59,290 nucleotides of DNA from a virus, in IMG/VR virus record IMGVR_UViG_3300029721_000003; one strand, 5' to 3'. Position numbers and translations under genes: made by a program. Below, piece after piece: positions 52,987 through 53,833 of the stretch. Under the pieces are notes generated by a model, which worked only from the letters and a program-made list of their open reading frames with translations, made no database searches and had not been told where the DNA came from. The first letter of the stretch is position 1, and every line of letters starts with the position of its first letter.

Positions 52987-53685
52987 TTAATCTATAAAAA
53001 TAATCGGTTTATCGTCATCAAAAAGATTACTAACAACTTCCTGTCCTTTATCCACCAAGTAACAAGGAACTTTTTGGAATCGCCTAAGCCCTTTGATAAT
53101 TTCATATTTGTTATTAATTCTATATATAGTTCCTACGAAATTACCTTTATTAACAGGAATATAAGATTGCGTATCTAATGGAGCTGATATAGGTTTGTCA
53201 AGTTCCTTAAGTTCTACAATATCTACTGCTTCAATCTTGCATAAATCACCATACTCACCTAATGATGGATATACCGGTGGTTTTAGTAACGCATGGTATA
53301 TATCATCTATGTCACTATCATCAGCTTTGATGTATATAGTTGTATATAAATCAACTAGCATTAGATGATATTTAACTGTACTAACCCAGCCGGTATGGCT
53401 TCCGTCTGCATAATCTGTTATAACATCCCAACGCTTAAGCATTTCATCGCTAATTTTGTTGAAATTATAGCCACCGTGCCATTCTTTTTGCACCTTAGTA
53501 TTATAAATTCCTTTACCAGTAACAAAAAAATCTAATTTATGATACCTTTTCCATTGGCACATTGAATGAATAAACCCATTAACTGTGCTAAATGGTGGCA
53601 AAGGGTAGCAATCTGCACCTTTTGGCGCTGATGGATTATTGAATCTAGCCATTTCTTGATACATTTTTAATCTTACAACTCTCAT
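52987..53685 (-). CDS. Solitary Cas5-like (RAMP-like) protein; tentative
   Basis: 232 aa from MRVVRLKMYQEMARFNNPSAPKGADCYPLPPFSTVNGFIHSMC (Cas5 N-terminal pattern: strand, a.Fr.P, YP.PPpST..G) and ...YPSLGEYGDLCKIEAV. No other cas genes or array seen. Confidence 0.35.
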   Translation of the reverse strand: MRVVRLKMYQEMARFNNPSAPKGADCYPLPPFSTVNGFIHSMCQWKRYHKLDFFVTGKGIYNTKVQKEWHGGYNFNKISDEMLKRWDVITDYADGSHTGWVSTVKYHLMLVDLYTTIYIKADDSDIDDIYHALLKPPVYPSLGEYGDLCKIEAVDIVELKELDKPISAPLDTQSYIPVNKGNFVGTIYRINNKYEIIKGLRRFQKVPCYLVDKGQEVVSNLFDDDKPIIFID

Positions 53686-53804
53686 AATAAAACCTCTAAA
53701 ATAAAATAAGTTGCACCTATACAAAAATGTATCAATGCAACTTTCCACTATGGTTCTATTAAGGTAAAATGATATATTAATTATCAATTGTTTACATCTA
53801 TTAA

Positions 53805-53833
53805 ATAATAGCATTTTTAAATATTATTGTCAA
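53805..53833 (-). promoter_or_regulatory. Consensus-like promoter of the Cas5-like gene
   Basis: Minus strand TTGACA-17 nt-TATTAT, then a ~110-nt leader with a GTTGCA...TGCAAC inverted repeat. Confidence 0.55.

Follow-up and report, generated by a model that had tools for sequence, protein, structure and literature searches.

Why would a temperate phage carry a gene for one subunit of the effector complex Cascade and no other cas gene? The question is raised by the IMG/VR virus record IMGVR_UViG_3300029721_000003, a stretch of 59,290 nucleotides (nt; hereafter, the window), in which a solitary gene with its own promoter and leader, located on the minus strand between positions 52987 and 53833, encodes a homologue of Cas5. 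A sequence-only reading of this locus had suggested that such a lone subunit might act as an inhibitor of CRISPR immunity. The anti-CRISPR idea is indeed the best-supported reading and has a precedent in AcrIB3, but the picture of a lone subunit is incomplete, as the leader of the gene appears to be a guide-RNA-like partner. By comparison with the repeats of Lachnospiraceae type I-B systems, the leader is a degenerate mini-CRISPR array composed of a handle, a spacer, a truncated repeat, and a terminator. We consider it probable that the locus is a two-part anti-CRISPR cassette directed against type I-B systems, which combines a guide RNA silencing the cas operon with a Cas5 mimic. In this scheme, the expression and processing of the RNA, the repression, the action of the Cas5 protein, the transcription start, the terminator read-through, and the target of the spacer allele found in the window (allele A) are what we infer from the following features.

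53828-53833, minus strand: -35 box TTGACA (promoter scan, 11/12, spacing 17)
53805-53813, minus strand: extended -10 box TGcTATTAT, with TATTAT at 53810-53805 (promoter scan)
53790-53806, minus strand: remnant of the first repeat, ATTTAATAG, overlapping the -10 box (repeat comparison)
53797-53790, minus strand: 8-nt ATGTAAAC, similar to the 5' handle of a CRISPR RNA (crRNA), with a 7/8 match to the Lachnospiraceae I-B repeat end ATGTAAAT/G
53765-53789, minus strand: 25-nt spacer AATTGATAATTAATATATCATTTTA, allele A (alignment with the phage family)
53741-53764, minus strand: second repeat-like unit CCTTAATAGAACCATAGTGGAAAG, cut short at the equivalent of the Cas6 cleavage site (repeat match score)
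53698-53743, minus strand: hairpin AAGTTGCA...TGCAACTT, then a U-tract (fold -28.8 kcal/mol, z -4.3)
53693-53697, minus strand: ribosome-binding site AGAGG, 7 nt before the ATG at 53685 (read from the sequence)
52987-53685, minus strand: orphan Cas5b homologue of 232 amino acids (aa), MRVVRLKMYQ... (profile, model, and fold search)
52925-52979, minus strand: terminator-like hairpin CCCACGGA...TCCGTGGG with a U-rich tail, 3' of the gene (-16.6 kcal/mol, z -3.05 for the hairpin at 52979-52940)

A degenerate mini-CRISPR array in the leader

The repeats used for comparison were taken from Lachnospiraceae I-B loci of the cas6-cas8b-cas7-cas5-cas3 type, where they follow the consensus G[TA]TT[TA]AATAGnnACATnGTGGAATGTAAA[TG] and are separated by spacers of 35-36 nt. 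The best match to these repeats in the entire window falls in the leader (53765-53736, local score 18.0); in 100 Markov simulations, each scored as the maximum over 13 repeats, the mean was 13.5 with a standard deviation of 1.0 and a maximum of 16.5. The second-best match, TTGATGGTAGGTACATTATGGAATGTCCTT at 42001-42030 on the minus strand, lies inside the large terminase ORF (open reading frame; 41167-42960), and its score of 16.5 equals the null maximum; it is probably due to chance. The second repeat of the leader has the CCAT variant, which the second repeats of host regulatory mini-arrays typically show.

The TTGACA-17-TATTAT promoter proposed earlier was recovered at 11 of 12 positions and has a TG extension in addition; the same layout is present in the orthologous loci L130, L134, and L090 (L-numbers denote loci of this study). 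The handle ATGTAAAC begins 8 nt after the -10 box, following TTAATAG, at the predicted transcription start. In L130 and L132, too, ATGTAAA is separated from the -10 box by 7 nt; these two loci have the handle only, while a complete first repeat is kept at this position in L134 and L090.

The sequence-only reading had described a 110-nt leader with an inverted repeat, and the hairpin is real, though the leader is not a plain untranslated region. As a different hairpin followed by a U-run occupies the equivalent place in every orthologue and host mini-array, the hairpin at 53698-53743 is best interpreted as an intrinsic terminator or attenuator that would close the small RNA, with read-through leading to the cas5-like mRNA; on the same grounds, its interpretation as an Aca-type operator was set aside. 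The second hairpin, 3' of the gene, agrees with the terminator suggested previously, even though a simple terminator scan misses it; its loop is long. That reading had also proposed a noncoding partner of the protein, and there appears to be one, at 53797-53698 in the gene's own leader and not in the region downstream. The downstream intergenic region (52590-52986) was considered as an RNA partner and rejected, having no repeat-like match and being less conserved. A search of the cassette region against Rfam gave nothing meaningful.

No other stretch of the locus is as conserved as the leader in the 63 unique relatives compared. Its hairpin has a nucleotide diversity of 0.004, and the 57 nt before the hairpin one of 0.03, as compared to 0.075 in the coding sequence, where the median dS is 0.30.

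The orphan gene encodes a diverged Cas5b

The assignment of the 232-aa product to the Cas5/RAMP proteins, which had been made from short motifs, is confirmed by profile, structure, and phylogeny. The protein matches NCBIfam TIGR01895 (type I-B Cas5b/Cas5t) with an E-value of 9.1e-24 and 84.2 bits, a score below the curated cut-off, over residues 1-218 and profile positions 1-204 of 217. Thirteen Cas5/Cas5b models of PADLOC also match it, the best one being Cas5b (E 2.4e-24). The Pfam family Cas_Cas5d matches the N-terminus only (E 0.039; 14.3 bits against a cut-off of 23), and a search of PHROGs gave no match. A longer ORF of 275 aa, starting at 53814, is an unlikely alternative: its upstream part overlaps the conserved non-coding element, and the AGAGG located 7 nt before the ATG at 53685 supports the 232-aa start. 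Orthologues have GGAGG at the equivalent position.

A sequence search of the PDB with a profile of 115 sequences yielded just an E-value of 0.15 to a I-B Cas5, and hence a fold search was needed. The AlphaFold2 model of the protein (alignment of 115 sequences) has a pLDDT of 93.5 and a pTM of 0.87. The top 27 matches of this model found by Foldseek in the PDB (E <= 6.3e-4) are Cas5 chains of I-A, I-B, I-C, I-E, and I-F Cascades or Cas5-HNH, the best being the I-B Cas5 of 8FCJ (E 1.4e-7, TM 0.57-0.61), and a type III-B Cmr chain follows as match 28, the last one within E <= 0.001. Thus, the profile and structure searches that the sequence-only reading had called for returned Cas5 similarity and not an unrelated fold. 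A library of viral structures contains a single strong match, a 95%-identical "uncharacterized protein [Bacteriophage sp.]".

The protein shares its fold with bona fide I-B Cas5b (TIGR01895, PF09704; 8FCJ, 8IP0, 8H67; Foldseek E 1e-7 to 6e-4, TM 0.5-0.6) and retains the core motifs PLPPxS..G..H and SLG..D. In contrast, the NYRKP motif of bona fide Cas5b is replaced by ARFNNP, the gene is located outside any cas operon, and three loops are of different length in the phage clade. At the level of sequence comparison, two of these loops are shorter than in bona fide Cas5b (7 vs. 13 and 9 vs. 13 residues), the former being the P177-G185 loop, for which 13 is the bona fide median and AcrIB3 has 6 residues; the third difference is a 6-residue insertion between G72 and R85.

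Relatives of the gene were found on 113 IMG/VR contigs, and the best 80 of the 113 are 91-99% identical. Profile searches yielded approximately 20 proteins. In a neighbour-joining tree of 20 orphan proteins, 95 bona fide Cas5b sequences, and AcrIB3, the orphans form one clade apart from the bona fide sequences, the nearest of which is 35% identical and encoded within a cas8b-cas7-cas5 operon. Every clade member whose context was read is an orphan, located in a phage or prophage without other cas genes. A dN/dS of 0.11 indicates strong purifying selection on the gene, and the ORF is intact in 66/66 copies.

The family itself had initially been treated as new, which does not hold. Katz et al., who catalogued 358 orphan viral cas genes, list IMGVR_UViG_3300007353_000004 in their Table S3 as an orphan viral cas5 (CAS-I-B, predicted host Lachnospira); this record is our locus L083, with a protein 91% identical to that of the window. 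In a tblastn search of GenBank phages, matches were confined to Listeria phages of the AcrIB3-like kind and a fragment of a Fusobacterium phage, and no near-identical locus was found among GenBank phages. Neither the protein nor relatives of it were found in GTDB genomes, and a search of IMG/VR with three distant orphan lineages gave no further relatives.

The closest functional precedent is AcrIB3 of Listeria, a Cas5 homologue 38% identical to the host Cas5 that assembles into Cascade and blocks DNA engagement (Katz et al.); a later review also notes the loss of a hook required for the binding of Cas8b and the presence of an additional loop (PMC13131331). The window protein resembles AcrIB3 in being a full-length orphan type I-B Cas5 homologue on a temperate phage, in sharing about a third of its residues with the cognate host Cas5 (33% identity to Cas5b from the host locus type targeted by spacer allele B, see below), and in having a shortened loop at the same position. 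On the other hand, the two proteins are only 27% identical (E 9e-29), and AcrIB3 is grouped with bona fide Cas5b (up to 44% identity), whereas the window protein belongs to a separate, deep clade consisting solely of orphans. Judging from these sequences, AcrIB3 and the window family look like independent co-options. Moreover, the window gene is coupled to a crRNA-like mini-array, whereas none was seen beside the Listeria-phage homologue examined, where no ATGTAAA motif was found. In Listeria phage LM 4-11-1 (L275; Cas5 homologue at 1501-2235), the ORF downstream, starting MHKYLAKSNPEETIQEHTDNLL, appears similar to the N-terminus of a Cas3 HD domain, and this phage may carry a partial cas operon instead of cas5 alone.

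Phage spacers and a host regulatory circuit

A divergent mini-array was identified upstream of cas6, at a distance of 60-300 bp, in 66 of 103 Lachnospiraceae I-B loci. In 60 of these 66 loci, the spacer matches a site on the opposite strand over the seed and a CC protospacer-adjacent motif (PAM). The PAM is consistently CCN, and the target is located at about -81 to -95 relative to the cas6 start. Mismatches in the 10 loci from GTDB genomes that were aligned in detail include positions 6, 12, and 18, which is the signature of Cascade pairing. The L263-type host loci examined have the target abutting the -35 box, and several discrete spacer/target alleles coexist within one species-level group (L106-L129, L195-L274).

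The phage family has two main spacer alleles, A, which is that of the window, and B (AATAGATAACTATTATAT...). In 19 loci from human-gut metagenomes, allele B matches the site cct followed by AATAGATAACTtTTATAT, with a CCT PAM, at 15/15 paired positions. This site is situated immediately before TTGACA, 81 nt upstream of the cas6 start. Over 18 nt, allele B is identical to the mini-array spacer of the targeted hosts themselves, and the coincidence of phage and host spacers extends to positions 6 and 12, which are unpaired. In locus L259, the host allele is the same as a minor allele of the phage family, and spacers from three other lineages of phage mini-arrays match CC-flanked sites upstream of cas6. 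All matches of phage spacers in host loci are localized 81-95 nt upstream of the cas6 start (approximately 130 nt in L273), and none elsewhere in these loci. Orthologues with 61-66% protein identity agree at spacer positions 1-5, 7, and 9-11 but differ at positions 6 and 12.

Other kinds of targets were sought as well. The spacer has no self-target in the phage and no seed match in the host flanks, and no convincing target was found in non-cognate I-B loci. In viruses, the PAM-plus-seed pattern yields 59 scattered single matches in diverse, mostly environmental contigs, consistent with chance. Conversely, 587 spacers from Lachnospiraceae I-B arrays produced just chance matches of 16-20 nt to the phage family.

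These host and phage elements share the design of CreR/CreA, crRNA-like regulators of cas operons, in which the autorepression by CreR is relieved by anti-CRISPR proteins (Liu et al., bioRxiv 10.1101/2023.03.10.532045). The common traits are a degenerate mini-CRISPR, partial complementarity to the cas promoter (here with allele B), and Cascade as the repressor, a role predicted for the phage element; in silico, this design is the one seen in the 66 host loci. The leader in the window has the corresponding layout, i.e., an array with its own promoter, a short spacer flanked by repeat-like units, and a terminator, and the pairing with the promoter that spares every sixth position is complete for allele B (15/15) and reaches 13/15 at best for allele A. 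The difference is in the role. CreR is an element of host homeostasis that senses an anti-CRISPR attack by derepression, whereas a phage copy under a near-consensus promoter would hold the circuit off.

Regulatory mini-arrays predicted to silence cas genes have been described in phages of Clostridium perfringens and Fusobacterium (Shmakov et al., bioRxiv 10.1101/2023.03.03.530964; NAR 2023). These arrays, of I-B and I-F types, likewise consist of a degenerate repeat, a short spacer, and a repeat, have a seed identical to that of the host mini-array and a target upstream of cas6 with a I-B PAM, are predicted to counter defence by cas silencing, and were found beside anti-CRISPR genes. However, no adjacent cas gene was reported there, whereas here the array and a Cas5 homologue would share one transcription unit, a pairing that recurs in many lineages. 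In addition, the first repeat in the lineage of the window is reduced to a 5' handle at the predicted transcription start, so that no Cas6 cut would be required at the 5' end.

The third related class are Racr, phage RNAs derived from repeats, one of which forms the RacrIC1-AcrIC5 unit with RNA and protein on one transcript (Camara-Wilpert et al., Nature 2023, PMC10651486). The RNA of the window would similarly be a repeat-derived non-coding phage RNA that can share its transcript with a protein anti-CRISPR. Yet RacrIF1 is a solitary repeat without a functional 5' handle that forms aberrant Cas6f-Cas7f filaments, whereas the window RNA has a handle, a spacer (with a specific class of promoter targets, as seen for allele B), and a 3' repeat.

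The action of RacrIF1 through aberrant Cas6f-Cas7f complexes provides a model for an explanation that we regard as unlikely, namely, that the phage Cas5 and RNA nucleate dead-end sub-complexes soaking up Cas7 and Cas6, and the similarity of spacers merely reflects their origin by copying. A complex built on the short spacer would be small, and the identity of phage and host spacers at the unpaired positions 6 and 12 suggests recent copying. Three observations speak against a pure decoy. Firstly, discrete phage spacer alleles equal different host alleles. Secondly, the paired positions are kept across orthologues while positions 6 and 12 drift. Thirdly, the first 18 nt of the spacer are identical to the host ones while the flanking repeats have diverged, which points to selection on target pairing.

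Still less credible, in our opinion, is a role outside anti-defence, whether as a decaying captured CRISPR-cas fragment, a mini-array directed against other phages, or an unrelated RNA-binding protein with the Cas5 fold. Virus-borne mini-arrays against related viruses are known (cited by Shmakov et al.). A route of joint capture also exists: host I-B loci contain a solitary repeat-like unit (e.g., AAATTAATAGATACATATTGGAAT) a few nt after the cas5 stop codon and before cas3 (L263 8182-8211, L121 8726-8755, L129 8731-8760, L124 4071-4100); a distance of 4 nt from the stop codon was recorded. This adjacency could have allowed the phage to acquire both parts together, or could be a further regulatory or processing site. 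The purifying selection on the intact gene and the exceptional conservation of the leader within the locus speak against decay. An anti-phage function is at odds with the spacer having no match in the phage and only the scattered single matches in other viral contigs mentioned above, while all its matches in host loci are at the cas6 promoter.

Coupling of mini-arrays and orphan cas5 genes

A mini-array directly adjoins the cas5-like gene in 10 of the 12 orphan lineages examined. Orthologues with 53-66% identity carry it in the equivalent place, whereas in distant members it follows the stop codon immediately or has a promoter of its own (L104, where the spacer is 17 nt long; L094, where there are three repeats; L103). 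Repeat matches above the threshold in the distant loci adjoin the gene only, save one marginal match in L101 (score 12.5). When IMG/VR was scanned by pattern for I-B mini-arrays with short spacers, 119 loci were retrieved, and in 90 of them, representing at least eight lineages, a cas5-like gene is present within 400 nt.

The mini-arrays without a cas5-like gene are among L276-L394 (e.g., L375, L290, L367, L390). One such group has the spacer ATTAATTTATTATCAAGACATTT..., whose first 23 nt coincide with the spacer of the host mini-array in Coprococcus ammoniilyticus. In the largest group (GTTAGCTTAG...), one contig has a bona fide-type Cas5 match elsewhere in the locus, and hence this group may represent host CRISPR loci inside predicted proviruses.

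The persistence of the coupling suggests that the RNA and the Cas5 function together. The competing view is that two independent anti-CRISPRs share the locus: a dominant-negative Cas5 of the AcrIB3 type, leaving Cascade without DNA binding, and a mini-array that acts apart, either through the few complexes with the host Cas5 or chiefly by competing for Cas proteins. We consider this rather improbable, although it has several points in its favour. For AcrIB3, also a Cas5 homologue, assembly into Cascade and a block of DNA engagement have been demonstrated, and the P177-G185 loop is shortened in both proteins (with the 6-residue insertion as a further change). Anti-CRISPR genes and RNA anti-CRISPRs are known to cluster, as in the RacrIC1-AcrIC5 bicistron and in mini-arrays located by acrIF23/24, and some phage mini-arrays have no cas5. 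Against independence, a subunit that abolishes DNA binding would oppose the co-transcribed guide RNA. Further, at least 10 lineages maintain the coupling, which extends to proteins of about 35% identity and occurs in two gene orders; this favours co-function over mere sharing of a locus. In addition, the protein lies outside the AcrIB3 clade.

Proposed mode of action

In the two-part cassette that we favour, the near-consensus promoter would drive the synthesis of a crRNA-like RNA of approximately 100 nt. Its 8-nt 5' handle would be produced directly by transcription initiation with no Cas6 cut at the 5' end, the truncated repeat would supply the 3' handle, and the 25-nt spacer would be situated between the handles, with the terminator at the end. 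This RNA would copy the CreR-type regulatory mini-array kept upstream of cas6 in Lachnospiraceae I-B loci. Loaded in the host Cascade, it is expected to bring the complex to a CCN-flanked site abutting the -35 box of the cas6 promoter; for allele A, the expected target form is CCN-AATTGnTAATTnATATAT or a close variant, upstream of cas6 in Lachnospira rogosae or its relatives. Occupancy of the promoter would shut off the whole cas operon, and the phage RNA may also compete with defensive crRNAs for Cas proteins.

Terminator read-through would yield the mRNA of the diverged Cas5 subunit, which most likely replaces the host Cas5 in newly assembled Cascade, as AcrIB3 does experimentally. The phage Cas5 is predicted to keep assembly and DNA binding, since the linked guide RNA needs a DNA-binding Cascade, to favour or tolerate the phage RNA, and to disable interference. 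Immunity would then be blocked without the derepression response of the host to anti-CRISPRs. A stronger version, for which we have a tentative case at most, is that the phage Cas5 is not a poison but a dedicated subunit that, together with the phage crRNA mimic, turns Cascade into an interference-dead, DNA-binding repressor on the cas6 promoter. If so, the virus would supply both the guide and a protein part of a CRISPR interference (CRISPRi) device directed against the CRISPR locus itself, and the derepression alarm would be silenced.

Several observations weigh against the two-part cassette. Cascade containing AcrIB3 fails to bind DNA, and similar behaviour of the phage Cas5 would cancel the guide RNA. 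The score of the protein against TIGR01895 falls short of the curated cut-off of 96.7 bits. About 25 of the 119 phage mini-array loci, in five lineages, have no cas5-like gene; with about a quarter of the arrays in this state, the RNA can evidently work alone. Conversely, no recognisable mini-array of this repeat family was seen in the lineages P0014 and P0020, whose genes are linked to a helix-turn-helix (HTH) gene. No target of allele A was found among the 103 host loci sampled, the 13/15 match being the best, and two genome scans for the I-B locus of L. rogosae yielded other Lachnospiraceae only. Finally, the carrier of the allele B target is a gut Lachnospiraceae, with the nearest named Cas8b from [Bacteroides] pectinophilus (63%), and may be neither L. 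rogosae nor the host of this phage.

Phage genome and surroundings of the cassette

The window represents a temperate phage genome of approximately 59.2 kb, which was assembled completely and as a circle: its two ends (1-99 and 59192-59290) are an exact direct repeat of 99 nt, the mark of a circular or complete assembly. Genes for the large terminase, an SPP1-type portal, a GH25 lysin, and a tyrosine integrase are present. The solitary state of the Cas5-like gene was borne out by tblastn searches of the window with Cas6, Cas8b, Cas7, and Cas3 of the cognate type, none of which gave a match (all E > 0.1); as a control, the host Cas5 finds the gene at 5e-32. There is no canonical CRISPR array in the window either, so that the earlier statement on the absence of arrays is correct in this sense, but not with regard to the leader, which itself is a degenerate mini-array.

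A prophage copy is found on a 407-kb metagenome contig, whose host genes are 99% identical to those of [Lactobacillus] rogosae, now Lachnospira rogosae. This copy (L001 5175-5523) is located downstream of spoIIAA-spoIIAB, within sigF, the host gene for a sporulation sigma factor. The homology to L. rogosae stops within a truncated sigma fragment of 85 aa, and the phage homology begins approximately 110 nt later. The tyrosine integrase of the window is at the matching end (about 58998-59290 and 113-1360). The insertion resembles prophage-like elements interrupting sporulation genes.

The neighbouring antirepressor and metallopeptidase genes noted by the sequence-only reading were found as a 283-aa AntA antirepressor and a 116-aa, weakly Peptidase_M78-like protein. 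An HTH regulator next to the gene, as in acr-aca operons, is not present in the window: the genes upstream are a 48-aa ORF and the M78-like protein, and the closest gene of the HTH_26 type is located at 50506-50733. Among distant orthologues, an HTH gene of approximately 138 aa overlaps the start of the cas5-like gene in P0014, P0020, and P0021. Some genes of the orphan clade are located near anti-restriction genes (ArdA, Lar), and others form a small operon behind an HTH gene, beside a lysis cassette or an integrase. In the L090 lineage, with a 53%-identical orthologue, genes for the anti-restriction protein ArdA and for restriction alleviation by Lar (9947-10450 and 1273-1566) are located close to the cassette, which suggests an anti-defence neighbourhood.

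On the other side of the gene, approximately 700 nt (52274-52986) contain no convincing ORF, are conserved in a part of the phage family only, and have no match in Rfam. This stretch includes a perfect sigma-70 promoter (TTGACA-17-TATAAT, 12/12) at 52525-52553 on the minus strand, directed toward lower coordinates, and a perfect 20-bp palindrome TGTAGACTTATAAGTCTACA (52578-52597) approximately 25 nt upstream of its -35 box. It is possibly a small RNA gene with an operator. Elsewhere, the phage has an int-alpA RNA motif (Rfam, 53 bits) beside a 376-aa ORF without a Pfam match, as well as tRNA-Ser(GCT) and tRNA-Gln(TTG) (46707-46774, 47249-47333, 47555-47625).

Implications

Anti-CRISPRs derived from cas genes and phage mini-arrays regulating cas genes have been described separately, and here they appear in one conserved transcription unit, in a human-gut phage family that is abundant. 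The RNA half of such units escapes searches for orphan viral cas genes in which loci near repeats are discarded, as well as array finders unable to recognise degenerate mini-arrays. The discrete spacer alleles, mirroring the promoter alleles of hosts, can help to match phages to hosts by sequence in Lachnospiraceae. If the transcription start really sets the 5' handle, this would be a natural way of making a type I guide RNA that needs no 5' Cas6 cut. If the coupling is functional, the phage supplies a guide RNA together with a matching Cascade subunit and so re-programs the host effector against its own operon, which would be an example of evasion of the transcriptional "anti-anti-CRISPR" feedback of the host.

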